Assembly: GCA_016875165.1 (NCBI GenBank)
Contig: VGSF01000018.1
Location: forward strand, 399 to 64,398
DNA length: 64,000 bases
Reading direction: 5' to 3'
From: Deltaproteobacteria bacterium
Lineage (GTDB): Bacteria > Desulfobacterota > SM23-61
The notes beneath the pieces were generated by a model. It was not told the origin of the DNA, searched no databases, and saw only the letters and a program-made list of their open reading frames with translations. Below, piece after piece: positions 10,309 to 63,949 of the stretch; the first letter of the stretch is position 1, and each line of letters starts with the position of its first letter. The translations under genes and the position numbers were made by a program.

Positions 10309-10578
10309 TGTAACACTTTAGCCCTTTGAAAAGAGGTGGGGCGTAAAGTCAGGGGGAATCCATGGTCCGGGGGCCTGGGCGGCCCGCTTGGAATCATAAG
10401 GCGCTGATTTCTTCGCGGGTGGGGCGGGGAAAAAGCCCCCCGCCTCCTCCGGCGGAAAAGAGCGGGGTTCTTCGTGGCCAAGCGAAAACCCAGCCGATGC
10501 TTCCGGCGCGTTCCACCCAGGCCCCCGGACCTCAACAAAGGTGGTAAAACCACTTTTTCAACCCGCTAAATTGATACA
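10309..10578 (-). mobile_element. MITE family A, copy A1
   Basis: Ends TGTAACACTTTAGCCCTTTGAAAAG ... TTTTTCAACCCGCTAAATTGATACA form imperfect TIRs. A 6-bp duplication ATTTTT is present at 10303-10308 and 10579-10584. Confidence 0.7.
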
Positions 10579-11740: not shown

Positions 11741-12008
11741 TGTATCAGTTTAGCGATTTGAAAAAAATGGTATTAAAGCCTTTGTTGAGGGCCGGGAGCC
11801 AGAGCGGAACGCGCCGGAAGCATCGGTTGGGTTTCCACTTGGCCACGAGGACACAAGATATTTTCTTCTGGAGGAGGCGGGGGTTCTTGCCCGCCCCATA
11901 TGCGGAGAAATTAGCGCCTAATGATTCCAAGCTTCCGCTCTGGCCCCCGGCCTCTGGAATCCCTTAGCCCTTACAACACACCTTTTTTCAAAGAGCTAAA
12001 GTGTTACA
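11741..12008 (+). mobile_element. MITE family A, copy A2
   Basis: Family A TIRs and core. A 6-bp duplication AAGCAT is present at 11735-11740 and 12009-12014. Confidence 0.7.
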
Positions 12009-29714: not shown

Positions 29715-31621
<1,907 letters not shown>

Positions 31622-31704: not shown

Positions 31705-31995
31705 TTAACGATGGGCTGCTTTTTCATAGACAAGCTTTCCTTCCTTCATTACAAGGCTCTTGAATTTCGTCATCTTTCCGGAGAGGTCGATGATGTCAAC
31801 ATCCTTAGACATCTCCCGGAGGAGTTCTCCATAAAACATAAAGAGCTTTCCAGGTGGTATGTCCGCCACGGCGAAATCATAATCCCTAATTTCGGGGGGC
31901 TCCTTGTATAGGGCAGATCCGATCAAGTACATCTTCCCGATGCCATATTTTTTGGCAATAGCAATGGCCTTCTCAAGCTCTTCCTTCGGAATCAT
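31705..31995 (-). CDS. Minimal nucleotidyltransferase-fold protein
   Basis: LIGSALYKEPPEIRDYDFAV and VDIIDL resemble the GS..DxD..D NTase pattern. It overlaps the upstream NTase gene by 4 nt. Confidence 0.5.
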   Translation of the reverse strand: MIPKEELEKAIAIAKKYGIGKMYLIGSALYKEPPEIRDYDFAVADIPPGKLFMFYGELLREMSKDVDIIDLSGKMTKFKSLVMKEGKLVYEKAAHR

Positions 31996-32309
31996 ATTTT
32001 CACCCCTTCCTCTTCGATATTTTTTACGATGGGGGATACTCGTAAAGGGGAATCTACTATTTCATAACGTGAAAATACGAGAGGAGAGATAAAAACAGAA
32101 TACTCTAATCCGACCTCCCAGGCTATGTGATATATATTATCTTCCAATCCCTTATCGATATGCTCTGCTTCAATAAACACATCCATGTCAGAATACTCCT
32201 CAGCCTCACCCCTCGCCCTTGACCCGAATATCCTGAAATCTACCAACTGGACAACTTTGGCCAATCTCTCTTTCAGCTCCTTGGCTATTTTATAGTCTTT
32301 TTGGGTCAT
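31992..32309 (-). CDS. MNT-type minimal nucleotidyltransferase
   Basis: IFGSRARGEAEEYSDMDVFI motif. Confidence 0.7.
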   Translation of the reverse strand: MTQKDYKIAKELKERLAKVVQLVDFRIFGSRARGEAEEYSDMDVFIEAEHIDKGLEDNIYHIAWEVGLEYSVFISPLVFSRYEIVDSPLRVSPIVKNIEEEGVKI

Positions 32310-32394
32310 ACAAACTCGCTTTCTCGCGCTTGGAAGTCAGAAAAACTGTATGACAGCTCTTTCTTTCTCCCCAGATTTTTCTTTCCCTTTTTTC

Positions 32395-32522
32395 CTGGTC
32401 ACTGATCACTGCCCACTGATCACTGATCACTGATTACTGTTCACTTTCCTTACCGTTCCAAACCCCCTCGAAACCGACTTCCCAATCCCCCAATAATCCG
32501 GAATTTCAAAATTGACCGGAAA
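32395..32522 (-). repeat. Third copy of the cas6 3' end (last 27 codons plus stop) followed by tandem GTGAWCA heptamers
   Basis: The minus-strand reading of 32431-32522 gives VNFEIPDYWGIGKSVSRGFGTVRKVNSNQ-stop, matching the cas6 C-terminus. 32395-32445 reads GTGAACA GTAATCA GTGATCA GTGATCA GTGGGCA GTGATCA GTGACCA. Confidence 0.75.
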
Positions 32523-32882
32523 TCATCGCAGCCCTCCTCTTATAAATTCTAAAAATGCCCTAAATCCTTCAAGGGGTTCGAATGGAAACGGGGAAACCTC
32601 CACCTGGTTTTGAGAGCCCCTATGAAAATGATGCGGAAAAGTGGCTAAGGACTGCCATTGCTTGTCGGGGAAATTGTCATACCGGAAAAAAGTGCCGAGT
32701 TCATCCATGGTTTCCCAGTGAAACCCAAACCGATCAGAAAATTTTTGCGACAAGAAAGCGTCTAAAAAACTGCCGTTGATAAAAACAACCCTCAACTTAT
32801 AGTCAATTTCATAGGTATTCTTAACGATATCAGAGAATTCTATTTCCGCGATTCTTTTCAAGTCTTCGATGGTGGGCATCAA
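32523..32882 (-). CDS. TumE-family (DUF6516) toxin-like protein
   Basis: FGFHWETMDELGTFFRYDNFPDKQWQSLATFPHHFH matches the ..YHxQ..FRYDNxPHxP..TFPHHKH.. pattern of DUF6516. Confidence 0.65.
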   Translation of the reverse strand: MMPTIEDLKRIAEIEFSDIVKNTYEIDYKLRVVFINGSFLDAFLSQKFSDRFGFHWETMDELGTFFRYDNFPDKQWQSLATFPHHFHRGSQNQVEVSPFPFEPLEGFRAFLEFIRGGLR

Positions 32883-33157
32883 ACTGCCTCTGAAAGGAAT
32901 TTTTTAATCTTTTCCCTTTCCGCCTCAAGGTTATCGAAAACAAAATAGTCCTCATACCCTTTTTCTTCTGTGATAAACCCTTCTTTTACTCTCGAATCAA
33001 ATTCAAAGACATCCTTAACCCCATATTTTTTCGTCAAAATATAAATATCGGCTTCAATCTTTGCGAGCCTCTTCTCGAGATAAGTCCTGAGACTTTCCTT
33101 TATCAGCTCATCCGGCTTCATATGAAGTTCTTTCGCGACTAAATCTATAGTGGCCAT
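32879..33157 (-). CDS. 92-aa partner of the TumE-like gene
   Basis: RBS AAGGAGGG and a 4-nt overlap with the downstream gene. No family recognised. Confidence 0.45.
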   Translation of the reverse strand: MATIDLVAKELHMKPDELIKESLRTYLEKRLAKIEADIYILTKKYGVKDVFEFDSRVKEGFITEEKGYEDYFVFDNLEAEREKIKKFLSEAV

Positions 33158-33199
33158 CTTACCCTCCTTTGATCACCTTTTTCTTTTCCAACAAATTCA

Positions 33200-33372
33200 A
33201 TCTTTCCCCGTTCAACTTTCAATTCTTTGAACCGTCCCAAACCCCCTCGACAACGATCCTGAATCAAGTTCAGGACAAGCCCCCCAATTTGCCAATAATC
33301 TGGAATTTCAAAATTGACCGAAAAATGGCCGGGGAATCCAAGCATTGGGGTGCCTTTTAGGATATAGATCAA
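33200..33372 (-). repeat. Second copy of the cas6 3' end (about the last 56 codons), disrupted
   Basis: It reads ..YILKGTPMLGFPGHFSVNFEIPDYW.. like cas6 ..YYLKEVKTSLKGTPMLGFLGTFSVNFEIPDYW.. An insert of about 29 nt contains the palindrome CCTGAACTTGATTCAGG, and SRGFGTV then follows out of frame. Confidence 0.75.
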
Positions 33373-33596
33373 TCATGCTTCTTTTGACCATATTCTTCCT
33401 GATTTTCGTGTACGGCTCCAACCGAGATGGAAGTGGGTTCGACCAATCGGCTTTTCAGTCTGTCCCAAAGCGGATCCCTTTCGATAAGCTCTCGGGTCTT
33501 TTTGCGCTTCTCAACCCATGAGAGTCCCTGATCTTCTTCGTCAATTTCCACCCGCCGTCTGCGCATCCAGGCAACAGCATCAAAGGTTTTCTTCAT
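33369..33596 (-). CDS. 75-aa partner of the PIN-like gene
   Basis: MKKTFDAVAWMRRRRVEIDEEDQGLSWVEKRKKTRELIERDPLW.. It overlaps the PIN-like gene end. Confidence 0.45.
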   Translation of the reverse strand: MKKTFDAVAWMRRRRVEIDEEDQGLSWVEKRKKTRELIERDPLWDRLKSRLVEPTSISVGAVHENQEEYGQKKHD

Positions 33597-34050
33597 GGGA
33601 CAACACCTCCCTCGGAGTACGAATTTCAATCAATCCGTAGCCTTGCTCTAAATTAACGGCATTGAACAGCCGTATTTTGTCTAAATTGACGACATGCTTA
33701 AAATTCCAACTGACTAACACGTCCACGTGAGCAACCGTCGCCAAAGCTACATGAAAAGCATCCGACCGACTACCAGGGCCAACGATCCCATGGGCCAGAT
33801 ATGCTTCTGCCAAAGCATCGGCTTCCGGTGTATCTGCAAGTATGATCTGATGCGCCACAGGAATATCAAGAAGGTGTGCACGCACGTTTTCAGGAGCTCC
33901 GCTTAATTCTCGAAGAGTATGTTCCGACAGAACCTGCATAAAAACGCCCTTGATGAAAAGGCGCCACAGTGAGAGACTGGGTTTAGCAAATTCGCTGTCC
34001 TCGCAACCGCCAATAGCCGAGGCATCAACATAAATATAAAGCCTCTTCAT
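33580..34050 (-). CDS. PIN-like domain protein (VapC-type toxin candidate)
   Basis: MKRLYIYVDASAIGG.. and ..DAFHVALATVAHVDVLVSWNFKHV.. fit the acidic-residue spacing of PIN-like toxins. Confidence 0.55.
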   Translation of the reverse strand: MKRLYIYVDASAIGGCEDSEFAKPSLSLWRLFIKGVFMQVLSEHTLRELSGAPENVRAHLLDIPVAHQIILADTPEADALAEAYLAHGIVGPGSRSDAFHVALATVAHVDVLVSWNFKHVVNLDKIRLFNAVNLEQGYGLIEIRTPREVLSHEENL

Positions 34051-34114
34051 CTGTATCTCTCCCCACCTAACTTCGTCCCCGTCTCCCATTTCGTCATTTT
34101 TTACTGATCACTCC

Positions 34115-34798
34115 TCACTGTTCACTCTTCACTTTTTTTATCGTCCCAAATCCCCTCGACACCGACTTCCCAATCCCCCAATAATCCGGAATTTCAAAGT
34201 TGACGGAAAAGGTGCCCAAAAACCCAAGCATGGGAGTGCCTTTGAGGGAAGTTTTAACTTCCTTAAGATAATAGATATTCGCCTCGATTGGAGCCGGCAC
34301 CGTATACCCCAGACTCTTCGACATCGAAATAATATTGCCAATCATTATCTTCTCGAGGAGTTGCTTCTTCTTCCCCCAAGTGCCCAACATCTGGTATTTT
34401 TCGTAATTCTTTTCATTTAAGGCAAGCCAGGGGGTGAGGAAGGAGTAGGATTGAACGGTCTCAGTGGTTTTTATTGGGGTATGATGAAATTCTAATTCTG
34501 TAGTAAGGATAGTATAATTTCCACACCCTAAAAAAAGTGTTTTTGCCGCCAGATCAAGATTGGCAAGGAGTTTTGCTCCGTCCTTAAATCCAACAAGCAG
34601 ACAATTACCATTAATTATCTTATACTGAACCAGCGGATGGTGGTAATCAATTTTCCCATTTTCACGATGTTGATGAAGTAATCGTTCTTCGGGATAGAGA
34701 TTGGATACTGCTCCGCGCAAGTCTTTGGTTTTAACTTTCCGATCAAGGGGTCGGTCAAATTTAAGTTTGAGAATACAGAGACTTATTTTACTATTCAT
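34115..34798 (-). CDS. cas6: Cas6 pre-crRNA endoribonuclease
   Basis: N-terminal ..LRGAVSNLYPEERLLHQH..YHHPLVQYK.. and C-terminal glycine-rich loop SRGFGTIKKV. The start overlaps the cas3 end by 4 nt. Confidence 0.8.
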   Translation of the reverse strand: MNSKISLCILKLKFDRPLDRKVKTKDLRGAVSNLYPEERLLHQHRENGKIDYHHPLVQYKIINGNCLLVGFKDGAKLLANLDLAAKTLFLGCGNYTILTTELEFHHTPIKTTETVQSYSFLTPWLALNEKNYEKYQMLGTWGKKKQLLEKIMIGNIISMSKSLGYTVPAPIEANIYYLKEVKTSLKGTPMLGFLGTFSVNFEIPDYWGIGKSVSRGFGTIKKVKSEQ

Positions 34799-37101
34799 AA
34801 TATTAATACTCCACCTGTAGAATCATCATCTATAACCAAACCTTTATCTGTAGAATAAAATCTATCGTGTAATATCCACTGCCCCAAATATTCAGTTGCA
34901 ATATCCTGTGGATCAAATCCGCGTTTTGCATAAACACTAACTGAAATTTTTGCTATCCTGCCTGCCATCGCTCGCCATGCCTCTCTCCGCTTCCAACGGT
35001 CGTCTATTTTGTTTGCTTTTGACATTTCATCTTTTAATTCAGGATCCTGTTTTATAACCAGAAAGGTGTATTTCTCCCGTTCTTCTCCCCGAAGTAGTTC
35101 CTTAACAGACTTATCTTCCTCCCATCTGGCAAATTTTTTAAGATGCTCAATCCCTGTATTCTTCTTTGCGGTCAACATCTCAAAGTAACGATCTGCAAAA
35201 GGTAGGATATCCCTTTCTTCGATCTCTGTAATCTCCTCTGTTAGTTGTTGAGTAATCTGCAAATGAACATCATCGTACACCATATCGGAATACCGTTTCC
35301 CCTTTTCATTGTTCAAGTCAACGACCTCAACAGTTGCCGGATGAGATAGTCTGCCGTTACGATTACAACGGCCAGCAATTTGAATTAAGCTGTCAAATGG
35401 AGCAAAGTCTCGAATTACAAAATTCATATCAATGTCAACCCCTGCCTCTATGCACTGAGTTGACACAACAATACAAGGATTATCTTCCTTAATTGTCTTT
35501 ATAATATCTAACCTATCCTTTGGAGTTACATCTGCACTGAGGAAAAATAATGGAATGTTTGAAAATTCCCGAGGCCAATCATCAGCCAGTTTATCACGCA
35601 CAAGCCGGGCGCTCTTGCGGGTATTCAATGTAATAAGTACCCGCTTGTTATTTTTTAACCATTCATCTCGGCGATTAAAAACCTCATTGCAGAAATCATT
35701 TATCTTAAGTTTTTCCTGAAGCCTAAACTGCAACTTATATCGGTTGAATTCCTCAAAATAAGCAGAGTAATCTTCTACGAGTGGTTTTGCATCCGAAATG
35801 ATGGCAGGGAGTGTAGCCGACATCAACAAAACACTGCTGTTACCAATCTTTACCAGACATCTCAATAGTTCTTCCAAAGGCTTCCATAACTTACAAGGAA
35901 GAGACTGAACCTCATCCATTACAATTAAAGAGTCGCACAAATTATGAAATCGCATCTGGTACCTTGTCTTTGTATCCATCAGAGCCATTAAGAACTGATC
36001 ATAAGTGGTAATCGTCAATTCCGTTCGCCATGTATCAACAAAAAAGTGTTCAACATCTTCCTCTAATCCCTGCTTATATTTTCTGTCGGACAGGGAGTGA
36101 CTTGTTAAAAACCATGAACCATCGGCCTCTTGACCACCAGTTGTCAGGAGAGATTCATATTCCCTTGTTGTCTGGTCAATTACAGAAAGAAAGGGCAACA
36201 CAATTATTGCCTTTGGGCATAGTCCTTTCTTGCTCATCTTCTCACGTAATTTTAAAAGCCATGTGGCAGAAAGCATCGTTTTGCCACTACCTGTTGGTGC
36301 TGTCAGGCTGAATATACCAGTCCTTTCAATCTTCTCAATCTGGCTTTTTAAAGTAATTCTTAGTGATTGTCGGATCTTATTAACCGGTGTATCTTCTGGT
36401 GAACCAATCTTTTGGTCAACCCATTGAGAGTTCCAGTATTTTATCTCTCTCTGGAGATAAGTTTGGGGGTTTTTTACAGCAAGAAGTGCCTTATCAGCCT
36501 CAAGCAAAAGAGAAAAGAGCAACTGGGTTTTTAGCCTGAAGATAATGGCATCCTCAATTGATAATCCCTCAAATTTAGGCACGACAGAATTATCAAGATA
36601 TTTTAAAGCCTCTGCCCAGGGACGACCATCAAGATTTAGCCTTGAAATATCAAGACCAGAATGCTGATTTAAGCCATCAGCTTGCAGGGTTGCAATCTGT
36701 CGCTTTAAGGTTTTGGGAAGTGCACCAATGCCTATTTCCCTCAACCTTTCTGCTAACGGTAATTCTTTATGGTGGCCGAAAACAATAGCAGATACACTCA
36801 TTGTCTCTAATGCCTCCCACTTTTCCTCTCTGGAAATTAAAAGTGTAAGAAGCAGAGACATTGGTGTATGAGCTTTATCCATTGGGTCGCCGGTGTAAGC
36901 AGGTGGATTCTCAATATATTCCTGAAATGCCTTTGTCCCTTTCCCTATATCATGCAAAGAAACTACCTTCTGAATAAGTGCCTTAATTTCCGGTGACACT
37001 ACACTCTTTGAATGCCAACCGCAGAGGCTGTCTATTGCGGATTTAACTTGAGCAATATGTTCAGAAAGTTGGAGATCTGGATGAGATTTCAGTTTGGTCA
37101 T
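34795..37101 (-). CDS. cas3: Cas3 HD nuclease-helicase fusion
   Basis: HD region VVSLHDIGKGTKAFQ, helicase motif I APTGSGKT and motif II VMDEVQS. Confidence 0.92.
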   Translation of the reverse strand: MTKLKSHPDLQLSEHIAQVKSAIDSLCGWHSKSVVSPEIKALIQKVVSLHDIGKGTKAFQEYIENPPAYTGDPMDKAHTPMSLLLTLLISREEKWEALETMSVSAIVFGHHKELPLAERLREIGIGALPKTLKRQIATLQADGLNQHSGLDISRLNLDGRPWAEALKYLDNSVVPKFEGLSIEDAIIFRLKTQLLFSLLLEADKALLAVKNPQTYLQREIKYWNSQWVDQKIGSPEDTPVNKIRQSLRITLKSQIEKIERTGIFSLTAPTGSGKTMLSATWLLKLREKMSKKGLCPKAIIVLPFLSVIDQTTREYESLLTTGGQEADGSWFLTSHSLSDRKYKQGLEEDVEHFFVDTWRTELTITTYDQFLMALMDTKTRYQMRFHNLCDSLIVMDEVQSLPCKLWKPLEELLRCLVKIGNSSVLLMSATLPAIISDAKPLVEDYSAYFEEFNRYKLQFRLQEKLKINDFCNEVFNRRDEWLKNNKRVLITLNTRKSARLVRDKLADDWPREFSNIPLFFLSADVTPKDRLDIIKTIKEDNPCIVVSTQCIEAGVDIDMNFVIRDFAPFDSLIQIAGRCNRNGRLSHPATVEVVDLNNEKGKRYSDMVYDDVHLQITQQLTEEITEIEERDILPFADRYFEMLTAKKNTGIEHLKKFARWEEDKSVKELLRGEEREKYTFLVIKQDPELKDEMSKANKIDDRWKRREAWRAMAGRIAKISVSVYAKRGFDPQDIATEYLGQWILHDRFYSTDKGLVIDDDSTGGVLIL

Positions 37102-37823
37102 AAATACATTACAACCTTATCGTCAACTTTATATGCTTGGTCTGTCTCTGCAGGAACTGCCCTTCCATCGCGCTCTACGAAATAGGCAGAATGGGAAAAA
37201 ACCCTATCAGCCGTAACGGTTCGGGGCATTTGGAGAGAATGGATTACTAATTCCTTCTCAAATATCTTTTCCATTTCAAGAACACCCACCCCCTGCTGAA
37301 ATACAGACTGAACATCGTAAGTGCCTTTTGGAAGCAACATACATTCATTTGTGCCAAGATATTCAATATCCGCTATCATTTCAGAAAGCCCAAGAGATGG
37401 ACTAAAATGCCACTGCCTCTTGTTTAGTCTATTTTTCAGTTCGGTATGGTGTGGCTCGGGGATTGAAACCCAGACGGTATAACTTGGTTCAAATAGCCAT
37501 TCTTGAAGAATCAATGTTGGTTTTTCAGGTACTGTATTCCGGTCTAACTTTTGAGTTCTTCTTATAAAGTGAGGTAATAAGGCGGGTGGATCCTTGCGCA
37601 ACTTTGCCCTATGCCAATGTGTCTTTGGCAATCTTCCATAAATTGCAACATTAGCTGGTTCCAGAGCAACCTGTGGCTCATCTTTTGGCAAACCAAGAAC
37701 AGCACCTAAAATACCCAAGATAACAGTTCTTGGTGGAATGGGGTAACTCAAAGCGCTTGCTGATGCCTCTGCCCTTAAGAAATGCGCAAAGCGACCACTG
37801 AGTCGGAAAATTATCAATTCCAT
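37098..37823 (-). CDS. cas5: Cas5
   Basis: MELIIFRLSGRFAHFLRAEASASALSYPIPPRTVILGILGAVLG is a canonical Cas5 N-terminus. Confidence 0.85.
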   Translation of the reverse strand: MELIIFRLSGRFAHFLRAEASASALSYPIPPRTVILGILGAVLGLPKDEPQVALEPANVAIYGRLPKTHWHRAKLRKDPPALLPHFIRRTQKLDRNTVPEKPTLILQEWLFEPSYTVWVSIPEPHHTELKNRLNKRQWHFSPSLGLSEMIADIEYLGTNECMLLPKGTYDVQSVFQQGVGVLEMEKIFEKELVIHSLQMPRTVTADRVFSHSAYFVERDGRAVPAETDQAYKVDDKVVMYL

Positions 37824-37826
37824 TGG

Positions 37827-38843
37827 TTACTCCTTTGATGTCTTTGCAGACTCATTATCTTTCTTGGAAGTGGATAACATTTCAACATCAAAAGACTCCC
37901 ATCCCGATGGCAAATCTTCTGTCAACTGAATATCCATTGATTTAGCATAACGCACCTTTTTTATCCTCACATTCTGAGCCATCAACCGGTTAATTAATAT
38001 CGTCAGGTCTAACTTGTAATCATCAGGTGATGCCCATGCCTTTTCGTCTTTGCCATTACTTGCCAGCATTTTCACGTAGTCATGCAATCGTCCAAATTGA
38101 AACTCTTCTTCTGCATTGTATTTGATGTCAATCAGCAGATGTGGAATTTGTCCTACTTTGGTTCTGGTGTTTCCACAAACCCTCACCCCGTGCCACATTG
38201 CTTTCAGCAGATATTCATAATCCTCGTCTGACATTTTCGAAATCTTTGCAGAATGTTCGTTTGCCACGCCAGAAAAGCCAATCAAGGCATAACGAAGGCC
38301 AAAGTAAGCAGTAAATGTACCTGCCTTTTCTTCCCCACTTTTGGAAAAGATAGTTGTTCCATGAATATCTACTTCCTCTGCTTTGTGAAGGACTTCGCCC
38401 ATATTGAGTTGAACCGCACCAGTCATTGTTTTGGGGACAAGATCCCATTTTGCCTTTCTACCGCTTCCTTTTCCTTCCTCTTCTTTTTTAAATGCAAAGG
38501 AGCTGCCAAAAAGCTTGGCATCAATAAAGGCATCCAAGAGTATCTTGACTAACTCCTCGCCGTTTGCCTCCTTCTGGTTGTGCTTTTGGAGATAATCCAC
38601 AACCCTGCCGGTCAAATTTGTTGTCCTGCCTTCAATGTTATCAACTAAGATGTCTTTCCCCTGACTTTTCATAAAATCCCGAGCAAAGCGTTTTAACCGA
38701 ACATCAGTTACATAATGTGTTCCATCCGGCAAAACCCGGGGTCTGTTTTCATCTGGATCACCATTTGGATTACCCATCTTGATGTCATAGAGAAACAGAA
38801 ATTCATGCCTGCTTGATAAAGTATCTTTAGTTTCCTTGTCCAT
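37827..38843 (-). CDS. cas7: Cas7 (Csh2/Csd2-type)
   Basis: FLFLYDIKMGNPNGDPDENRPR motif. Confidence 0.88.
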   Translation of the reverse strand: MDKETKDTLSSRHEFLFLYDIKMGNPNGDPDENRPRVLPDGTHYVTDVRLKRFARDFMKSQGKDILVDNIEGRTTNLTGRVVDYLQKHNQKEANGEELVKILLDAFIDAKLFGSSFAFKKEEEGKGSGRKAKWDLVPKTMTGAVQLNMGEVLHKAEEVDIHGTTIFSKSGEEKAGTFTAYFGLRYALIGFSGVANEHSAKISKMSDEDYEYLLKAMWHGVRVCGNTRTKVGQIPHLLIDIKYNAEEEFQFGRLHDYVKMLASNGKDEKAWASPDDYKLDLTILINRLMAQNVRIKKVRYAKSMDIQLTEDLPSGWESFDVEMLSTSKKDNESAKTSKE

Positions 38844-38844
38844 T

Positions 38845-40824
38845 TTATTTTTCCTCCTTTTTCGGTAAGATTGTTGTGGTCATAGACTGACCCAGCAACA
38901 GATAATAGTTAGTTGGTATCTCACCCAACTCAATATTATCTCCCAGCCTCCAGCCAAGATTCCCAATCTCAGCAATAAGTTCCCTCACATCTTCGCTCTT
39001 TTCGGTTTCATAAGATAGGAGCTTTTCCCTGGTTTTAATATACAATTCAGGAAGGTCTCTTCCCTTCAATGTACACCGTTTAAGCCAGGTAAGGGCATTT
39101 GCACCTACATTAACACCCCTTGCCCCTTGGACTTGAAGCACCTTTCCATAAAGCACACCAAGCAAGAAGGCATACGCCTTTTGTGGAGAATCAATCCCAC
39201 TTTCAGCGCCAAAATAGAGATTCAATCTCTCCATCTGCGGTTCGTAATATTTGTCTTCCATACTCATCACCTCCAATTTCTTAAAATAATATAACCACCA
39301 GCACAGATTTCTTATCCAACCAGCAGCAGTTAAAAAGGTCTCTCCAGTTTTCTTTCGGCCTTCGTAAAGAAGACTATTGTATCCTTTATCTTTTTGAATA
39401 GCATTCAGCCAATAGACTCGGGCAATAGTCATAATTTCTTCCCAGAATCTTACCGTTGGAATCTCTGTTTTGTGATATACAGAGGCAGCTATTGCTTTCT
39501 TTAATTGATGAAGTTTCATACTTGCGTCTGGACGATAAAATAGTGTTTTTAATGCCCTAAGTGATAAATCAGGGTGGAAGTTGATTCTTTTATCAGAAAA
39601 AAACATTATTTCTGGAAAAAGAGGATGTTTCCAATCCCGTGATTCCTCATTAACCTTTGATAGCTCAGTCAATCTACCTGGTGGCACATTCGTTATCATA
39701 CCTGTTACATCTTCTATATTTTGCCCAACTGTAGCCCAGAGGAAAGTAAGATTTAATATCCCTTTTTTATCCTTAAGGATGTCCAAAATCGTTAGCTCAG
39801 CCTCTTCCACATCAGAAGGTACAGTCTTCACAATGTCCTTTACTGCTTTCCAAATACTCTGTCTCGCATGGTAGTCTACTGTAGTAAATGGGATTACAAC
39901 AGCATTCTCTCCTGCAATAGGGGTGATAAAGGAATTCTGGTTTTTAGAGTCCTTTTTCAGGAAGTGGAATTTATATATATACAGCAGATCAGCACAGGCA
40001 TTACAGAGGGCATATCCTTTCCATGCTTGAGTTGTATCAATACCAGGAAAGGCTCCTGCTCTATCAGCATTGCTTATGTTAATGCCAGCACCTTTCAGAG
40101 CATTCGGGAAAACAGTAACACCTGTTGCGCCACATAGAGGACAGGTTTGATTATCTACAGCAGGTGTATTGCCAGTAACATATCTTGTTCCGGCAAGTTT
40201 TTCAGTCATCAGATAGGTGAGATATTCTGGTCGTTGACCAGGAAGTTTCCCGCTGCTATCCTTAATAGCAAGAAATACAGTCTGTTTCTGTTCGCCAATT
40301 TTATCAACCGCAGCGGCGAGAAGATTTTCGTAACCAACATCTTTCCAACAGACAATAGAGTTATCTATAAGTTTGAGTTGTGGACGATTCAGCAACCCTA
40401 CAATTTCATTAAAATAAGGTGACCACGGTTTATTATCACCAGCAATTTCCTCAAATGATTCAATAGTTGTTTTAAGGATTTTAGTGGAAGGTCCTGGACC
40501 TCCTGCCTTACTATAGCTGCGTTTTATTACTGGCCCAATCTGTGCCCCTTGAGAACCAGATGGCCTCATAAACGGTAGCCACCTTGCCTTTTCTTCAGTC
40601 ATATCTTCAGGAGACAGCCTGACAATGTCTTGGTCTACATCCTTCTCAAGAATATAGATTTTTTCAACATTTTCTCCACTCTCAACCAAAAATGGAAACA
40701 GCCGTTCAGGGTGATCGGTGCGTAACTTGTGATACCATTCTTCCAGATTTTGAGGCGGATTGTCTTTGTCTCCCAGTTTGTCAAAAAGAGAATCCCATGC
40801 CATTGTTCTCATTGCGTTAATCAT
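38845..40824 (-). CDS. cas8b: Cas8b large subunit (TM1802/Csh1-like)
   Basis: 659 aa, located at the head of cas7-cas5-cas3, with a central zinc-ribbon-like CPLCG ... CNAC. Confidence 0.75.
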   Translation of the reverse strand: MINAMRTMAWDSLFDKLGDKDNPPQNLEEWYHKLRTDHPERLFPFLVESGENVEKIYILEKDVDQDIVRLSPEDMTEEKARWLPFMRPSGSQGAQIGPVIKRSYSKAGGPGPSTKILKTTIESFEEIAGDNKPWSPYFNEIVGLLNRPQLKLIDNSIVCWKDVGYENLLAAAVDKIGEQKQTVFLAIKDSSGKLPGQRPEYLTYLMTEKLAGTRYVTGNTPAVDNQTCPLCGATGVTVFPNALKGAGINISNADRAGAFPGIDTTQAWKGYALCNACADLLYIYKFHFLKKDSKNQNSFITPIAGENAVVIPFTTVDYHARQSIWKAVKDIVKTVPSDVEEAELTILDILKDKKGILNLTFLWATVGQNIEDVTGMITNVPPGRLTELSKVNEESRDWKHPLFPEIMFFSDKRINFHPDLSLRALKTLFYRPDASMKLHQLKKAIAASVYHKTEIPTVRFWEEIMTIARVYWLNAIQKDKGYNSLLYEGRKKTGETFLTAAGWIRNLCWWLYYFKKLEVMSMEDKYYEPQMERLNLYFGAESGIDSPQKAYAFLLGVLYGKVLQVQGARGVNVGANALTWLKRCTLKGRDLPELYIKTREKLLSYETEKSEDVRELIAEIGNLGWRLGDNIELGEIPTNYYLLLGQSMTTTILPKKEEK

Positions 40825-41255: not shown

Positions 41256-41942
41256 TCAAGGGTTAATGGGGTGATATACCCTGGTCCTCGACATAAGTTT
41301 CTTTATGCTATCTTTCGGGAACCACAAATCTATTTCCTTGAAGGTTACTTTGAGCTTGCCTAATTCCTCTCTAAAATTATGGATATTCTTTTGGGGTATA
41401 GCTACGACACCAGCTCCTACACGCATCCCCTGCAATGTTTGAACGATTCCCAATTTTTCGCTCTCATACGATTTATCCTTTATAAGTTTTCTTGTTTTTT
41501 GACCATATAATATCCTTTTAACTTTCATCTTATTCTTAGGATTCAAATTCGCAAGGCCAAACGTTACAAGCACATAATGTTCTAATTCCAAACCGTTAAC
41601 TGTTATTGAAGGAGACCTCGAAAATAAAAGGATCCCTTCCTTCATCACCACTTCCATAAAATGATCATCTAAGCCTGCAAAGTTTTTGTTTGTGAAAATA
41701 AGTTGAATACTTTTCCCGTATTCTTTCTCCAGGCTAAAAGCGAGTTCCGAGATTCTCGTTCTTGCTTCAACTTCTTCAAAATCCCTGTTATAGGAATCCA
41801 AAACTACCAACAAATCTATATCAGATCGTCTATCGGCATCGCCTTTGGCTACCGACCCAAATAAGAATATGTGAGCGACTTCCTCTACCGAGGCGTGCTT
41901 TGCAAATTTAAAAACCAAGTCTTTAAATTCATCTTGTATCAT
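41256..41942 (-). CDS. Nucleotidyltransferase with a C-terminal ferredoxin-like (Cas2/PaaX-middle-like?) domain
   Basis: LFGSVAKGDADRRSDIDLLVV NTase motif. The C-terminal half (HYVLVTFGLANLNPKNKMKVKRILYG ... LQGMRVGAGVVAIP) has a Cas2-like beta-alpha-beta pattern. An ATGA overlap links it to the upstream gene. Confidence 0.6.
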   Translation of the reverse strand: MIQDEFKDLVFKFAKHASVEEVAHIFLFGSVAKGDADRRSDIDLLVVLDSYNRDFEEVEARTRISELAFSLEKEYGKSIQLIFTNKNFAGLDDHFMEVVMKEGILLFSRSPSITVNGLELEHYVLVTFGLANLNPKNKMKVKRILYGQKTRKLIKDKSYESEKLGIVQTLQGMRVGAGVVAIPQKNIHNFREELGKLKVTFKEIDLWFPKDSIKKLMSRTRVYHPINP

Positions 41943-42298
41943 TCTGGCACTCCGCAAATTGCTTCAACAAATCGAAAGAGCTCTTGCGTCCTTCTAAGTT
42001 TCTTACCGTCAATTGCTCCTCCATAAATCTGTCCGGGCCTTATCTGATTTTCAATCTCTTGAAATGACCTCCAAACCTTTTCAGTATTCTCTCCAAAAAT
42101 CTCTTGATTATTTTCCAGGATCAATCTGACCTTCTGAAGTTTCTCAAGGTGAATTCCCAACTCAGCTGCTTTCGATTCTATTAAATGGAAAAGAGCATTA
42201 AAGTAAGCTTCTATCCTTGTCGGAATTGAATTTATTTCATTTTCGGCATCGTGCTTGAACATGAGATACTTCTCCTTATGAGAGTTAGAATCCGACAC
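41939..42298 (-). CDS. HEPN-like helical partner protein
   Basis: AYFNALFHLIESKAAELGIH resembles the ..YYAxFHAxxALL..GI..H.. helix of KNTase_C-type HEPN domains. The Rx4-6H motif is not obvious. Confidence 0.4.
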   Translation of the reverse strand: MSDSNSHKEKYLMFKHDAENEINSIPTRIEAYFNALFHLIESKAAELGIHLEKLQKVRLILENNQEIFGENTEKVWRSFQEIENQIRPGQIYGGAIDGKKLRRTQELFRFVEAICGVPE

Positions 42299-42799: not shown

Positions 42800-43495
42800 T
42801 TATCCTGATTTTCCGATACTCTTTTTTATCAGTTTTCTCGCCAGCCCTTTAAAGAAAACAGCCATCTCCTGGTCTTGACATTCTTTCTTCATATTCAGCA
42901 GTTCTACTCCCTTTTCCGGACATTCCAAGAACCTTCCTTGAAGGATATACCTTAACCCTTTGATGCCGAATTTTTGTTCCGTGGCCTCGACCATTTCATC
43001 GATGGACGGTTTTGGACAATCTCTCAAGATAAAATAAATGTCCACATAGTCTTTCACATCCTTCCTGTCTGTCAATGCCATGAATTTATTAGCCAAGATG
43101 TCGAGGATGCTATCAACCTGTATTCCCTCAACCCTCTTGAATGGTTTAATCGTTTTAAATGGATATTTTGTGAATTCCACTTTTAAGTATCCAGCGTCTC
43201 GGTACCGGATTATGAATATTTTTCTATCGAACTTCCTTTCGAGATTTAAATCTTGAACCTCCGGTAGGGATTTCAAAAAGGCCAAAATGAGTTCTGTTTC
43301 AACCTCCTCCTCGGTGAAGAAGTCGAGGTCTTCCGATAGACGATGTCGGAGGAAAAAGGCTGACAAAGCGGTCCCAGCCGTAATATAAAACTTCGAAGCC
43401 CCGGGCCATTCTGCAAAATGCCTTAATAAGATCTTCTGATGTTTTGTAAGAATAGGATTATTTTTTATTTTTTCCACTCTTCTCCTCCCAGGCAT
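42800..43495 (-). CDS. Nucleotidyltransferase AbiEii/AbiGii-family toxin (DUF1814)
   Basis: FYITAGTALSAFFLRHRLSEDLDFFTEEEV and ..VKDYVDIYFIL.. Confidence 0.7.
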   Translation of the reverse strand: MPGRRRVEKIKNNPILTKHQKILLRHFAEWPGASKFYITAGTALSAFFLRHRLSEDLDFFTEEEVETELILAFLKSLPEVQDLNLERKFDRKIFIIRYRDAGYLKVEFTKYPFKTIKPFKRVEGIQVDSILDILANKFMALTDRKDVKDYVDIYFILRDCPKPSIDEMVEATEQKFGIKGLRYILQGRFLECPEKGVELLNMKKECQDQEMAVFFKGLARKLIKKSIGKSG

Positions 43496-46668: not shown

Positions 46669-46853
46669 TCGCAACACTTTAGCCCTTTGAAAAAAGTCTA
46701 CGTTTTGTCATTCCCGTGAAGCTTGTCCTCGCGAAAACGGGGAACGGGAATCCAGAACCCATTAGGAAAAATCCTGGATTCCTGCTTTCGCAGGAATGAC
46801 GCCCTTAAAAATCACCCTGTTCGGGATAGTTTTCAAAAAGCTAAAGTAATACC
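46669..46853. mobile_element. Chimeric MITE: family A termini around a family-B-like hairpin core
   Basis: TCGCAACACTTTAGCCCTTTGAAAAAAG ... TTTTCAAAAAGCTAAAGTAATACC. A 6-bp duplication TATTTT is at 46663-46668 and 46854-46859. Confidence 0.65.
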
Positions 46854-47561: not shown

Positions 47562-47939
47562 CTCGATCTCCTTGTCTTTTCAAGTTATTAACACCCCCAC
47601 CCCAACCCTCCCCCATCGAGGGGGAGGGAATTTTGGATCCCCCAGTATCTCCCCTCCCCTGGCGGGAGGGGGTTGGGGGGAGGGGGATAGAAAAGGAAAT
47701 TCCTATACAATCAAGTTAAGTGAGTATGCTTTTTCCGCGACTGCCCACGGAAAAAAAGGCCCGCCTCAGACGGGCAGCGAAAAGTCCTGAAATCCCCCCT
47801 AACCCCCCTTTGGCAAAGGGGGGAAAGGGGGATTTATCGGCAGGCATTTCCTTCTTACAAACATGTTTGTTTTAATGAGGCGCTAAGCGCCTAAAGTGCC
47901 TAAAGTTAAAAAAGCAAATTCCTATACAATAAATTTATT

Positions 47940-48038: not shown

Positions 48039-48050
48039 CCTAAAATATTT

Positions 48051-48327
48051 TGTATCAATTTAGCGGTTTGAAAAAGTGGTTTTACCACCTTTGTTGAGGT
48101 CCGGGGGTCTGGGTGGAACGCGCCGGAAGCATCGGCCGGGTTTCCGCTTGGCCACGAAGAACCCCGCTCGTTTCCGCCGGAGGAGGCGGGGAGCGTTTTC
48201 CCCGCCCCGTCCGCGAAGAAATCAGCGCCTTATGATTCCAATCCCGCCATGGCGGAACCAGGCCCCCGGACCATGGATTCCCTCTGACCTTACGCTCCAC
48301 CTCTTTTCAAAGGGCTAAAGTGTTACA
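48051..48327 (+). mobile_element. MITE family A, copy A3
   Basis: TIRs as in A1. A 6-bp duplication ATATTT is at 48045-48050 and 48328-48333. Confidence 0.75.
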
Positions 48328-48378
48328 ATATTTTTAAACCCAGAATTCACAGAGGACGCAGAGAAAAAACAAAATCGG

Positions 48379-51216: not shown

Positions 51217-51500
51217 TGTATCAATTTAGCGGTTTGAAAAAGTGGTTTTACCACCTTTGTTGAGGGCCGGGGATCTGGGTGGAACGCGCCGGAAGCATCG
51301 GCCGGGTTTCCGCTTGGCTACGATGAACCCTCCTCGTTTCCGCCGGAGGATGCGGGGGGCGTTTTCCCCGCCCCACCCGCGAAGAAATCAGCGCCTTATG
51401 ATTCCAATCCCGCCATGGCGGGACCAGCCCCCCGGACCATGGATTCCCTCTGACCTTACGCCCCACCTCTTTTCAAAGGGCAAAGGGCTAAATTGTTACC
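51217..51500 (+). mobile_element. MITE family A, copy A4
   Basis: Family A TIRs and core. Flanks GGATTT / TGATTT match at 5 of 6 positions. Confidence 0.65.
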
Positions 51501-51552
51501 TGATTTTTAACCTTGAAAGTTTCCCTGTCAAAGGGTATACTTCATCCTGAGT

Positions 51553-51820
51553 TGTATCAGTTTAGAGTTTTGAAAAAATGGCGGCAATGCCTCTGTTTGG
51601 GCCCGGGGGCCAGGCCGGAACGCGCCGGAAGCATCGGTTGGGTTTCCCCTTGTCCTCGAGGATAAAAGCCCGTTTCCTCCGGATGAGGCGGGGAGTATCT
51701 TCCCCGCCCCATCCACGGAGAAATCAGCGCCTTATGATTCCAAGCGGGCCGGTCTGGCCCCCGGGCCCTGGAATCCCTTAGCCCTGGTGATACACCTTTT
51801 CAAAGAGCTAAAGTGTTACC
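51553..51820 (+). mobile_element. MITE family A, copy A5 (tandem to A4)
   Basis: Family A TIRs and core. Flanks CTGAGT / CTAAGT match at 5 of 6 positions. Confidence 0.65.
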
Positions 51821-53780: not shown

Positions 53781-53937
53781 TTGATGATCTCGTAAAAAGT
53801 CAAAATTTGGATGGCCAAGTAAAAAGCTCCATATGCAAGGCGCGCAAAACCTGAGGAGTGAGGCGTACTTACAAGGTACGCGGCAACGACGGGGGTGAAG
53901 CGTAACGCCGCAGATGGACTTTTTACGAAGCCATCAA
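53781..53937. mobile_element. MITE family B copy
   Basis: TTGATGATCTCGTAAAAAGTC ... GACTTTTTACGAAGCCATCAA flanked by CT/CT. Confidence 0.65.
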
Positions 53938-56583: not shown

Positions 56584-56637
56584 ATTTTTCGACTTTTCCA
56601 TTTGACTCATGTTGTTGTTAAACACAGCTTATATCGT

Positions 56638-56838
56638 GGCTCGGGGGCCAGGGGGCTGAGCGCCGGCAGCATCGGCCGGGAGAAAACCTTGAAGGAAAGG
56701 ATTTGCATAGTTTCCGCACATTGAGGCGGGGAGCTCTTTCCCGCCTGATCCATGGAAAGCCAAGCGCCTCATGATGCCAAGCGAAGCGCCCTGGCCCCCG
56801 GGCCTGGGAAGAGCATGGAATGTTATAATGCTCTTTTT
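56638..56838 (+). ncRNA. TIR-less copy of the family A core with its own terminator-like hairpin
   Basis: A 16-bp closing stem (GGCTCGGGGGCCAGGG / CCCTGGCCCCCGGGCC) and a GCGGGGA..TCCCGCC hairpin. It ends in AGAGCAT-N11-ATGCTCT plus TTTTT. No family A TIRs are present. Confidence 0.35.
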
Positions 56839-56873
56839 AGGCAAGGTGGTACTGGGCATCGGAAAGGAATGCT

Positions 56874-58406
56874 ATGGAAATGACTTTGGGGTATTCTGTA
56901 GTCCGCAATGCCCGGAAATATCCCCATAAAACCGCCATTATATGCGGAGAGGAACGGCGAACCTACCGGGAGTTGAATGAGCGCGCCAACCGCCTGGCCA
57001 GATCCCTTGCCAGCCTTGGCCTGAGGAAGGGCGACCGCATCGCCACCCTTTCCTTTAACTCCCTTGAGCTCATGGAGGCCTACATCGCTCACCTGAAGAT
57101 GGGAGCCATTACCGTCCCCCTGAATGCCTGGGGCACGGACAAAGAGATTCAACACCAGGCCGATTTCACCGGCTGCAAGATGCTCATTTTCCACCGGGAC
57201 TTTCTGGAACGTGTGGAACGAATCCGCTCCTTTCTTCCGCAGGTCGAGGAATGGATTTTCATCGGAACCGGCCTGCCCTCCTTCGCCAGATCTTATGATA
57301 AATTGATCGACCAAAATTCTTCCACCGACTATCCCAGCGAGGTGCAAGAAGAAGATGAGGCTTTTATTCTTTTCACCGGCGGCACAACAGGCGTTCCCAA
57401 AGGGGCCGTTCTCACCCACAAGTCTCTGCTCTGGAACATCATTAACGTTACCACGGAAATTCAGAGTCCTACATTCGCAGATGTCATCTACTTTCCCATG
57501 CCCCTCTTCCATACCGCCGCTCTGAGCCGGTTTTTAGCCTACATGTATGCGGGAGGGACTTTTATCGTCAGCCGGGAATTCGACTCCCGGAAATGCTTAG
57601 AGATCATCCAGCGCGAACGCGTCACGGCTATGACCGGAAACCCTACAATATGGGGAGAGCTTCTCAAGGAAATGGACCGGGGAGAATATGACACCCGCTC
57701 CATGCGCATGTACCTCTCCTCCCAGGGAATTCTACATGAGGACATGCAGCAGGCCATTCAAACCCGGCTTTTTCCCAATGCGAAAACCTATGTCAGTTAT
57801 GCCCTGACCGAAGCGTCACCCGGGGTAACGGTTCTCAAACCCGGGGACCGGCCCAAAGAGCCAGGGAGTGTGGGCAAGCCATACATGTCCACGGAAGTGC
57901 GTATTGTGGATGAAAATGATCAGGACCTTCCCACCGGGGAAGTTGGCGAAATCATCGTCAAAGGCCCCACCGTAATGAAGGAATATTTCCGAAACCCGGA
58001 AGAGACAGCCCAGACCACGCGGGGAGGATGGTTACACACCGGGGATTTGGGAAAGTATGACGTCGATGGATTCCTCTATTTCGTGGATCGAAAAAAAGAC
58101 ATGATCAAAAGCGGCGGCCTGAATATTTACTCCAAAGAAGTTGAAGAAGTTCTGTCCCGGCATCCCAAGATCGCTGAAGCAGTGGTCATCGGTGTACCGG
58201 ATAAAAAATGGGGAGAGACCGTTAAGGCGGTTGTAGTCGTCAAAGAGGGAAACACCCTTTCTGAAGGAGAAGTAATCGATTTTTGCAAGCAACATTTGTC
58301 CAGCTATAAAAAACCCACCTCCGTGGCCTTCATGGATTCCCTCCCCAAGAGTAAGTTTGGCAGCAAGGTCCTCAAGCGCGAACTTCGTGAACGTTTTTTG
58401 AATTAA
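56874..58406 (+). CDS. AMP-dependent acyl-CoA synthetase/ligase
   Basis: ILFTGGTTGVPKGAVLTH AMP-binding motif, and ..GWLHTGDLG.. ..DRKKDMIKSGG.. Confidence 0.88.
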   Translation: MEMTLGYSVVRNARKYPHKTAIICGEERRTYRELNERANRLARSLASLGLRKGDRIATLSFNSLELMEAYIAHLKMGAITVPLNAWGTDKEIQHQADFTGCKMLIFHRDFLERVERIRSFLPQVEEWIFIGTGLPSFARSYDKLIDQNSSTDYPSEVQEEDEAFILFTGGTTGVPKGAVLTHKSLLWNIINVTTEIQSPTFADVIYFPMPLFHTAALSRFLAYMYAGGTFIVSREFDSRKCLEIIQRERVTAMTGNPTIWGELLKEMDRGEYDTRSMRMYLSSQGILHEDMQQAIQTRLFPNAKTYVSYALTEASPGVTVLKPGDRPKEPGSVGKPYMSTEVRIVDENDQDLPTGEVGEIIVKGPTVMKEYFRNPEETAQTTRGGWLHTGDLGKYDVDGFLYFVDRKKDMIKSGGLNIYSKEVEEVLSRHPKIAEAVVIGVPDKKWGETVKAVVVVKEGNTLSEGEVIDFCKQHLSSYKKPTSVAFMDSLPKSKFGSKVLKRELRERFLN

Positions 58407-58407
58407 T

Positions 58408-58508
58408 GGGGACACAGATTTTCGCAGATAACCGCAGATAATTATTTTCTTTTTGATTTATCCTGATAATCTGTGTTCATCCGTGTCCAAAAAGCAATTT
58501 CCTATACA
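58408..58508 (+). repeat. Family C repeat plus AAAAGCAATTTCCTATACA box
   Basis: Paralog of 47940-48038. The box ends 27 nt upstream of the ATG at 58537. Confidence 0.6.
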
Positions 58509-58536
58509 ATAAATTTGTTTTTAAGGAGCCGAAACG

Positions 58537-59694: not shown

Positions 59695-59719
59695 ACTTTC
59701 CTTATTCAGCTTTTCAACT

Positions 59720-59901
59720 TTGATGAACTCGTAAAAAGTCTGAAAATGCCCTTTTCCGTCATTCCGGCCCCGATTTTCATCGGGATAAACTCCAGCCGGA
59801 ATCCAGTATTTTCAAATACTTATAAATACCCTGAACTCCGGTTTTCACCTGTCTGCCAGGCACAGGCAGGCCGGCGTGACGACTTTTTACGAGATCATCA
59901 A
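59720..59901. mobile_element. MITE family B copy
   Basis: TTGATGAACTCGTAAAAAGTC ... GACTTTTTACGAGATCATCAA flanked by CT/CT. Confidence 0.65.
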
Positions 59902-60013
59902 CTTTATTCCGCCTCAGGCGGATCACTTTAGACACTTGACACTTATTGTATAGGAAATTCCTTTTTTAACTTTAGGCACTTAACTTGAAATTTGTACTTT
60001 GTATTGGAAGGCA

Positions 60014-61703: not shown

Positions 61704-61858
61704 TCCTACCTCCACATGGCCATCAGTGCCTAGGTTTTTTCCGCGACCTTGCGCGTAAAAAGTGGCCCGCCTCAAGCGGGCAGCCAAAGTGCTTCAAATC
61801 CCCCCTAACCCCCCTTTTTTAAAGGGGGGATGGGGGAGATTTTCTAGTGCCAAGAAGT

Positions 61859-62014
61859 TTGATGATCTCGTAAAAAGTCGCGAAAGGGTCATTGCGAGCG
61901 AAAGCGAAGCAATCTCGTTTTTATAAGTGCCCGAAAAGACAAGATTGCTTCGTCGTCCCGCCAATGCAGAACTCCTCGCAATGACAGGAACAGGACTTTT
62001 TACGAATCCATCAA
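61859..62014. mobile_element. MITE family B copy inserted in a composite repeat
   Basis: TTGATGATCTCGTAAAAAGTC ... GACTTTTTACGAATCCATCAA flanked by GT/GT. The paralogous composite repeat at 47728-47900 lacks the insertion. Confidence 0.7.
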
Positions 62015-62179
62015 GTTTCCTTCTTACAAACATGTTTGTATTAATGAGGCGCTAAGCGCCTAAAAATATCTAACTCCATCCAGTTTCTAACAACCTTCCG
62101 GTGATTTGTCAAGAAATTCATCTGCTCCACCAGAATAAATATGGACAGGATTATGATCCCAGGGTTTGTTTTGATTGGG

Positions 62180-62640: not shown

Positions 62641-62888
62641 GATGGTTTCGTAAAAAGCCCATCTGCGGCGTTGCGGTTCACCCCCGCCCTGTTAGATCAA
62701 AAACTCCGCATTGAAAGTATAGGGCGTGGATTTAACTTCCAAGAGGAAGATTCATCTTGGGGTTTATCTAACAGGGTGAATCGTTGCAGCGTACCTGCAA
62801 GTACGCTTCACTCCTCAGGTTTTGCACGCCTTGCATCTGGAGCTTTTTACGAAACCATAGTCCTGATGCCTTTTTACGAGATCATCAA
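62641..62888. mobile_element. MITE family B copy with two right ends
   Basis: GATGGTTTCGTAAAAAG ... GCTTTTTACGAAACCAT then CCTTTTTACGAGATCATCAA. The core is homologous to 53781-53937 with an extra insert. Confidence 0.55.
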
Positions 62889-63681: not shown

Positions 63682-63949
63682 TGTCAGTTTAGAATTTTGA
63701 AAAAACCGCGGCAACGCATCTGTTTGGGTTCGGGGGCCAGGCCGGAACGCGCCGGAAGCATCGGTTGGGGTTCCCCTTGTCATCCGAGGATGAAAGCTTG
63801 TTTCCTCCGAAGGAGGCGGGAGTATTTTCCCCGCCCCATATGCGGAGATATAAGCGCCTTATGATTCCAAGCGTTCCGCTCTGACCCCCGGCCCCTGGAA
63901 CCCCTTGGCCTTTACAACACACCTTTTTTCAAAGAGCTAAAGTGTTACG
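63682..63949 (+). mobile_element. MITE family A, copy A7
   Basis: Family A core and right TIR. The left TIR is slightly shortened and no clear target duplication is visible. Confidence 0.6.

Follow-up and report, generated by a model that had tools for sequence, protein, structure and literature searches.

A strand-specifically folding, covarying core is shared by miniature inverted-repeat transposable elements with different ends

Miniature inverted-repeat transposable elements (MITEs) form a well-known class, and hairpin RNAs arise from some of them. Their interiors are usually regarded as junk between two transposase-binding sites. The elements that we describe here resemble bacterial MITEs such as Correia/NEMIS of Neisseria, RUP, Nezha, and MITEAba12 in being short, non-coding, high-copy, and intergenic, with terminal inverted repeats, a target duplication of fixed length, and movement in trans. 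However, ordinary MITEs have conserved ends around a filler interior, whereas here the interior is kept across families that differ in their ends and in the length of their duplications. It is the interior that forms the conserved part, i.e. a multi-helix, strand-specific fold kept through complete sequence turnover. Full-text searches of the literature returned nothing on MITEs in Syntrophaceae or Smithella, and nothing on MITEs with covarying cores or with interiors conserved across families with different ends.

Other described systems share some of these properties. REP/BIME and ERIC (IRU) are also abundant intergenic repeats that give stable hairpins in transcripts, but they are shorter, simple hairpins, REP has neither inverted ends nor duplications, and we know of no multi-helix fold in these repeats that has been shown to be conserved via covariation. 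Like SINEs (tRNA-, 7SL-, or 5S-derived), the elements contain a small, structured-RNA-like module amplified by machinery encoded elsewhere. SINEs use reverse transcription and internal pol III promoters, whereas our elements have DNA-transposon anatomy and no recognised promoter, and for their core, unlike for SINEs, we found no single-copy progenitor RNA gene. The IS110 bridge RNA and the IS200/IS605 omega RNA are structured RNAs of ~150–200 nt in the non-coding part of a mobile element, a format that the core resembles. In contrast to these systems, our elements have no recombinase or nuclease beside them, show no guide-like complementarity, match nothing in Rfam, and differ in anatomy.

The window, i.e. 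the whole 64-kb stretch of DNA that was analysed, contains six full copies of the element and a seventh core under other ends. These copies, the parts of the flagged copy A3, and a further element with A-type ends are as follows:

10310..10577, minus strand: copy A1, core 10362-10533, exact 8-bp duplication AAAAAATT in element orientation
11742..12007, plus strand: copy A2, core 11787-11955, exact duplication AAAGCATT
46671..46852, unstranded: A-type repeats around an unrelated core, the interior consisting of GTCATTCC...GGAATGAC-type palindromes
48052..48326, plus strand: copy A3, the flagged, complete MITE, 8-bp duplication AATATTTT at 48044-48051 and 48327-48334
48052..48075, plus strand: left terminal inverted repeat of A3, GTATCAATTTAGCGGTTTGAAAAA
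48303..48326, plus strand: right terminal inverted repeat of A3, reverse complement GTAACACTTTAGCCCTTTGAAAAG
48096..48274, plus strand: structured core of A3, 176 bits to covariance model R1
48098-48112 with 48258-48272: helix P1 of the A3 core, one U·G inside
48125-48136 with 48227-48239: helix P2 of the A3 core
48185-48191 with 48200-48206: helix P4 of the A3 core
48242-48257: optional hairpin of the A3 core
51218..51499, plus strand: copy A4, core 51262-51440, duplication CGGATTTT/CTGATTTT (7/8)
51554..51819, plus strand: copy A5, core 51598-51769, duplication CCTGAGTT/CCTAAGTT (7/8)
56591..56860 (end approximate), plus strand: family C copy, left repeat ~56593-56613, core 56636-56806, 143 bits
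63683..63948, plus strand: copy A6, core 63725-63896, left repeat degenerate, no clear duplication

Searching the window with A3 by blastn gives full-length matches at 10309-10578 (minus), 11741-12008, 51217-51484/51500, 51553-51819, and 63682-63948, and all six full copies are found where the initial annotation had placed them. Identity to A3 ranges from 74 to 95% among the full-length copies, which fall into two subfamilies relative to it (~92–95% vs. ~75%). Weaker blastn matches are restricted to the core near 56640-56810 and to an end at 46673-46696. The six full copies score 154–194 bits with covariance model R1, and on the sense strand of the window the model finds exactly seven cores (143–194 bits) and nothing else. 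The elements of the window are 266–282 nt long, below the ~600-bp limit for a MITE, and occupy intergenic gaps, often within operons. As had been noted earlier, A4 and A5 are arranged in tandem (spacer of ~53 nt) and the core is GC-rich, with a G+C content of 0.61–0.68 vs. ~0.39–0.55 in the surrounding 2-kb windows. The right end of A4 contains a 7-nt internal duplication. A sigma-70-like site at 51513-51541 (TTGAAA, 17 nt, TATACT) lies in the 53-nt spacer between A4 and A5 and is directed into A5.

We redrew the ends by aligning the six window copies together with their flanks. A-type elements read GTATCA...GTGTTAC, their ends are 23–24 nt long with an inverted match at 19 of 24 positions, and the target duplication is 8 bp. 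Three window copies have exact 8-bp duplications (those of A1, A2, and A3) and two more match at 7/8. In a set of 30 A-type elements, drawn from the window and from related loci, the two 8-bp flanks agree at 8/8 in 11 cases and at 7/8 in nine, while the chance expectation for unrelated 8-mers is ~1.5e-5 per pair. The termini TG..CA and the 6-bp duplications proposed initially had been set one base too far out, i.e. the 6-bp duplications are the inner part of the 8-mer, the supposed terminal T and A belong to the duplication, and the true ends are GTA...TAC. The suggestion of an IS481-like source falls with the 6-bp duplication. The IS481 family has TGT... ends and duplications typically near 6 bp, and we reject it as the source given the ends and the 8-bp duplications found here.

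Two of the window's elements had been described as a chimeric copy at 46669-46853 and a core free of terminal repeats. The former, at 46671-46852, does have the same ends around a different core, with a duplication that matches at 7/8. The latter does carry a left repeat, which is of another type (56593-56613) and recurs inverted downstream in homologues. Its right end has been lost in the window, and a hairpin with a T run is found instead at 56816-56843. This hairpin (AAGAGCAT...ATGCTCTT, followed by T's) lies directly 3' of the C-type core, at the position occupied in homologues by the right end of the element, and could serve as terminator for the HpaB-like gene upstream.

Beyond the window, the same core is found in elements that end differently. 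In related MAGs and metagenomes we collected 215 instances of the core, and the terminal inverted repeats that surround it are of at least four kinds. The repeat types that bear it are A, B, C, D/E/G/I, and F/H, with duplications of 8 bp or ~10 bp. Family B, from the MFD02979 MAG, has ends GTACCCATTCAGTGAC and GTAACCCTTCAGTCAA, a length of ~277 nt, and an 8-bp duplication that is exact in 13 of 34 elements; its interior is the same core at ~72% identity. A-type duplications are A+T-rich and B-type duplications are not, a difference in composition that suggests different transposases even among the 8-bp class. Family C homologues, obtained from two MAGs and from wetland, sediment, and groundwater metatranscriptome contigs, match 56589-56810 at 86–92% within unrelated flanks. 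The duplication in family C is ~10 bp, and the element in locus L046 has ATTCATCAAT on both flanks. The D/E/G/I types have ends CTTGCCCACCTTCACTTTTGA and a duplication of ~10 bp (e.g. ATAAGCGCGC and ATGATCAGGA), while the F/H types have ends GGATCATCTCCAAATTAGTTGA and exact 8-bp duplications in many MAGs. Elements of these other families reach ~350 nt.

The converse is also seen. A-type ends enclose an unrelated interior at 46671-46852, and in Desulfatiglandales MAGs F/H-type ends flanked by perfect 8-bp duplications enclose a very different interior that is A+T-rich. Because the same core stands under different ends and the same ends stand around other cores, ends and core are separable modules.

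Several observations concern the distribution of these parts. Many Desulfobacterota MAGs contain F/H-type ends. In those of Desulfatiglandales and their relatives, ends GGATCATCTCCAAATTAGTTG surround an interior of ~330–350 nt with sub-terminal repeats GGATTCAAGG. Copies with the A+T-rich interior are present at 1503-1848 in locus L289, 6784-7129 in L301, 339-686 in L336, and 1923-2251 in L286, and three of the four have exact 8-bp duplications (7/8 in L301). C-like cores at 11960-12128 in L063 and 2696-2862 in L087 have no detectable flanking inverted repeats; it is possible that they are repeat-less, progenitor-like copies, or simply decayed elements.

The core is 170–200 nt long and is built as a rod with a tip (RNAalifold, 64 representatives <90% identical). 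The rod consists of the closing helix P1 (16–20 bp), a short helix of 3 bp, and then P2, which is twice interrupted and has the consensus GGAAgCAUcGGY / GCCuyAUGaUUCC with 1x1 and 1x2 loops. The tip is formed by a variable hairpin and a GGCGGGG/CCCCGCC hairpin; the P3 hairpin is hypervariable. Ten family representatives give the same architecture from energy minimisation alone, and the predicted energies of the cores are -63 to -118 kcal/mol. This fold revises two details of the initial annotation. The blocks GGAAGCATCGG and GCCTTATGATTCC, taken there to look single-stranded, pair with each other as helix P2. The hairpin reported as GCGGGG is present as GGCGGGG/CCCCGCC in all window copies, but the blocks called invariant vary in the wider family.

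The helices are kept by compensatory changes. In a MAFFT alignment of 64 sequences <90% identical, standard pairs make up 97.4% of cells, a count that overstates the number of independent events because the copies share descent. Changes on both sides are found at 14 of 32 pairs, including 11 of the 14 pairs of P1. None of 500 shuffles reaches the observed values, and sliding the 3' partner by 1–3 columns reduces pairing to 33–57%. As had been proposed, the closing helix differs in sequence among copies while it stays complementary, and the core keeps a covarying structure. The near-invariance of P2 in the 64-sequence set reflects ascertainment, because the search pattern demanded those blocks. 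Model R1 recovered divergent families beyond the reach of the pattern, and in these the sequences of P1 and P2 differ yet pair: P2 is GCAA/UUGC, CAC/GUG, or GCCAAAAAGGGC/GCCUUUUUUGGC, and P1 is GGGCCCGGAAGGAAAG/CUUUCCUUCCGGGCCC or UGCCCGGGCAAAAGGGC/GCCCUUUUGCCCGGGCA. Across the families as a whole, P2 is also found as GGAA/UUCC and GGCA/UGCC. Among 45 cores retrieved via the F/H terminal repeat, i.e. with no ascertainment on the core but with an alignment fitted to the model, double-sided changes are seen at 24 of 32 pairs and, within P2, at 6 of 10. The alignments of A4 and A5 were also fitted to the model.

The kinds of mismatch in the helices reveal which strand folds. P1 contains 200 G·U vs. 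16 A·C in 185 distinct copies, and 121 vs. 16 in 126 distinct arm pairs, under a scoring that treats both alike. One-sided departures from the subfamily consensus produce G·U 49 times and A·C eight times, and a single P2 position alternates U·G (32) with C-G (31). If the element were a double-stranded palindrome, or if the fold were needed in both senses, G·U and A·C would be equally frequent, so the excess of G·U means that the plus-strand fold is what selection sees. The core, as a module separable from the ends, is thus selected for its fold on one strand. We infer that RNA, and not single-stranded DNA, is what folds, although the asymmetry fits either; in single-stranded DNA, too, G·T is better tolerated than A·C. 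The strand-specific pairing and the presence of the same core under several repeat types are the most informative facts about these elements, and both had been missed by the initial annotation.

Known RNA families do not account for the core. Rfam 15, with families such as 6S, SRP, RNase P, omega/HEARO RNAs, and self-cleaving ribozymes, gives no match at gathering score across the 64 kb, only chance-level matches for two copies (E 0.27–8.5), and no match at E<=1 for four loci with divergent families; the initial annotation could not place the core either and had called for this check. A coding reading was rejected, with the longest open frame shifting frame and strand between copies, and the spacing of anchor motifs departs from the commonest spacing by an offset that is not a multiple of 3 in 38% of copies. 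Core words are present in assemblies of rRNA-depleted metatranscriptomes (sediment, wetland, and groundwater), with contigs that span the element end to end and continue into diverse flanks; these assemblies are unstranded and may contain DNA, and they tell us that the sequence is there, but reveal neither a discrete RNA nor its sense. No sigma-70-like promoter was called inside the elements, and no conserved promoter across families is apparent by eye.

A search of species-representative genomes with a pattern of two core blocks finds at least 59 loci, nearly all in one long-read MAG. This main carrier is "uncultured delta proteobacterium MFD02979.bin.2.8". Among the matches listed, the other MAGs contribute one locus each and bear the labels Syntrophaceae, Thermodesulfobacteriota, Deltaproteobacteria, and Proteobacteria, and one further match lies on a 1.5-kb contig labelled Dehalococcoidia. 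Metagenome contigs add 115 stretches, while viral contigs and plasmid and phage collections contain no match to the element. The adenylate kinase of the window has 83% identity to its best genome match, and its nearest relatives are labelled Syntrophaceae, Syntrophales, or "delta proteobacterium". Of 80 adk loci of relatives, only that of the MFD02979 MAG has a copy within 3 kb.

In lake-water metagenomes the window is found at 100% identity with a depth near 30, and k-mers of the element have a depth of 1,700–5,200, which is ~60–180x that of unique DNA. This corresponds to of the order of 60–180 copies per genome, if all of these k-mers belong to the window's organism. The element is a sizeable share of carrier genomes and breaks short-read assemblies, with Logan contigs of the source metagenomes ending at each repeat, and as such it matters for binning and annotation.

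The family has moved recently: at one orthologous intergenic site, the insertions of three related genomes differ from one another, all being B copies but with three different duplications and in both orientations. This site (L017 ~1440-1720, L086 ~1140-1420, and L102 ~1780-2060) is a hot spot just after a conserved GTCAAGAACAAAGAA. Given their inverted ends, duplications of 8 bp or ~10 bp, high copy number, insertion in either orientation, and differing insertions at the orthologous site, the elements form a superfamily of MITEs. The MITE reading of the initial annotation agrees with this, as the elements are short, have no conserved ORF and no transposase alongside, and combine terminal inverted repeats and duplications with a high k-mer depth.

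We favour, with moderate confidence, the explanation that MITEs moved in trans carry an undescribed, structured, partner-dependent RNA module as cargo. DDE-type transposases encoded elsewhere would cut and paste the elements in trans. The core would be a structured non-coding RNA of a class so far undescribed, probably transcribed from the plus strand, and the RNA would act via a specific partner, e.g. a protein or another RNA. Several transposon vehicles may have picked up the module and spread it, akin to eukaryotic SINEs. There is a fair chance that the core is a new RNA class. If it is RNA, the class would be new and very abundant in Syntrophaceae-like bacteria of anoxic freshwater sediments, and transposons would here be seen to spread an RNA module as their cargo. 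A bolder form of this explanation, which we regard as possible and offer tentatively, is that of a trans-acting RNA, or "mobile RNA gene", captured repeatedly by at least two unrelated transposase systems, present in perhaps hundreds of copies per genome, and persisting because the RNA serves the element or the host, e.g. as an RNP. If true, it would be a bacterial DNA-transposon counterpart of SINEs.

An alternative is that the fold matters as DNA, either as a foldback structure (sub-terminal inverted repeat) that one DNA strand would need during transposition or replication or through template-switch ("quasi-palindrome") correction, with no function as RNA. Terminal repeats, P1, and P2 together make most of the element one long hairpin, as in foldback MITEs, and neither an internal promoter nor an orientation bias relative to genes is found, which fits a structure that does not require transcription. 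In DNA, too, G·T destabilises less than any other mismatch. On the other hand, we know of no DDE-type element that needs internal single-strand folds. The same fold is found under repeat types with 8-bp and ~10-bp duplications, hence probably under different transposases, and the same repeats move quite different cores. Taken together, the same ends with other cores and the same core with different ends mean that the transposase does not require the core. Template-switch correction would neither keep interrupted helices with fixed 1x1 and 1x2 loops nor yield a 12:1 excess of G·U. We consider a role as DNA unlikely; were it correct, the core would represent an unrecognised structural requirement in a cut-and-paste transposon.

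The core could also be the untranslated leader or trailer of a parental autonomous IS, e.g. a regulator of transposase expression, with the MITEs as deletion derivatives that inherit it passively. Such an origin would explain the covariation between subfamilies, the absence of a promoter, and the random orientation, and private changes within one long-read MAG are too few to show selection on single copies. In many cases a contig stops at an F/H-type repeat, which is what assemblies broken by longer repeats would look like. However, an autonomous partner with the same ends is found neither in the window nor in ~1.9 Mb of fetched loci, and none of the 215 core instances and further model matches is followed by a transposase gene or a distant partner repeat. 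The 1.25 Mb of loci contain no multi-copy long ORF, and 108 loci fetched via the F/H repeat gave only MITE-sized forms of ~310–350 nt. Other cores under the same repeats would, moreover, need several parents that differ only in their leader, and we find this origin improbable. Repeat pairs 450–7000 nt apart are chance pairs only, and cores that have no right end nearby are all decayed MITEs. The best candidate for a distant pair encloses a methyltransferase-like ORF and a membrane-protein-like ORF (by eye from the translations).

The ends themselves offer a partial likeness to a described family. IS66 elements have repeats of 20–30 bp that start with GTAAGCG and duplications of 8 bp (PMC11946415). 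The A and B types share the 8-bp duplication, and the A right end reads GTAACAC and the B ends GTAACCC. By contrast, the A left end reads GTATCA, the likeness stops after the five bases GTAAC, and neither TnpA/B/C genes nor an autonomous copy are found with these elements in the window and fetched loci. Families other than IS66 are suggested by the F/H ends (GGATCATC...) and by the C/D ends (CTG/CTTGCC, ~10-bp duplication).

A host-level cis element, i.e. an mRNA stabiliser, terminator, or insulator like REP/BIME, ERIC, or Correia that makes insertions harmless or useful, would suit the intergenic location, often in operons, and the very stable hairpin predicted at -63 to -118 kcal/mol. All seven window copies are, in addition, oriented toward the start of the gene on their 3' side. 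Across the 215 instances, however, the downstream gene is on the same strand in 78 cases and on the opposite strand in 79; on this split we reject a cis-regulatory reading and take the pattern in the window to be chance. No terminator was called inside the element or at the core, and P1 is not followed by a T run. In a generic hairpin, the loop geometry of P2 and the junction sequences need not persist across families, and a role exerted in either orientation would not give an excess of G·U on one strand, which leaves a cis element highly improbable.

We give very little credence to a guide or cofactor RNA for the element's own transposition, like the IS110 bridge RNA or the TnpB/IscB omega RNA: a structured RNA of ~180 nt in the non-coding part of a mobile element would have the same format, and the P3 hairpin is hypervariable, but the longest stretch of the inner core that is complementary to ends or flanks is as long as in shuffled controls, the elements have no nuclease or recombinase gene beside them, inverted ends with 8–10-bp duplications are, to our knowledge, not IS110 or IS200/IS605 anatomy, and Rfam, which includes IS605/HEARO-type RNAs, has no match to the core.

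The genome is riddled with further MITE-like families. Other high-copy short repeats lie in the window at ~47592-47830, 53781-53909, 58397-58520, 59714-59905, 61765-62037, 62766-62832, and 8811-8960, with a k-mer depth of 2,000–5,000 vs. ~30 for unique DNA in the source lake metagenomes, and several of them recur in loci of related MAGs. Other Syntrophales MAGs have insertions of 210–320 nt just after adk that are absent in relatives (L236 ~2100-2310 and L222 ~1963-2282). Model R1 has no match to these insertions, which are therefore further mobile short elements.

The window also contains a type I CRISPR-Cas locus at 30644-40824 (minus strand), with Cas1, Cas3 with an HD domain, Cas5, Cas7, and a Cas8b/TM1802-like protein. 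A 12-repeat CRISPR array (28705-29545; repeat GTTTCAATCCTTGTTTTTATGGAACCCGCACTTCAAC) lies beside the cas locus in a low-G+C part of the window; neither its repeat nor any of its spacers matches the element. Next to the cas genes are a nucleotidyltransferase (Polbeta/NTP_transf_2) ORF and an AbiEii-type toxin ORF, at 41256-41957 and 42800-43495, respectively, which look like toxin-antitoxin or defence genes.
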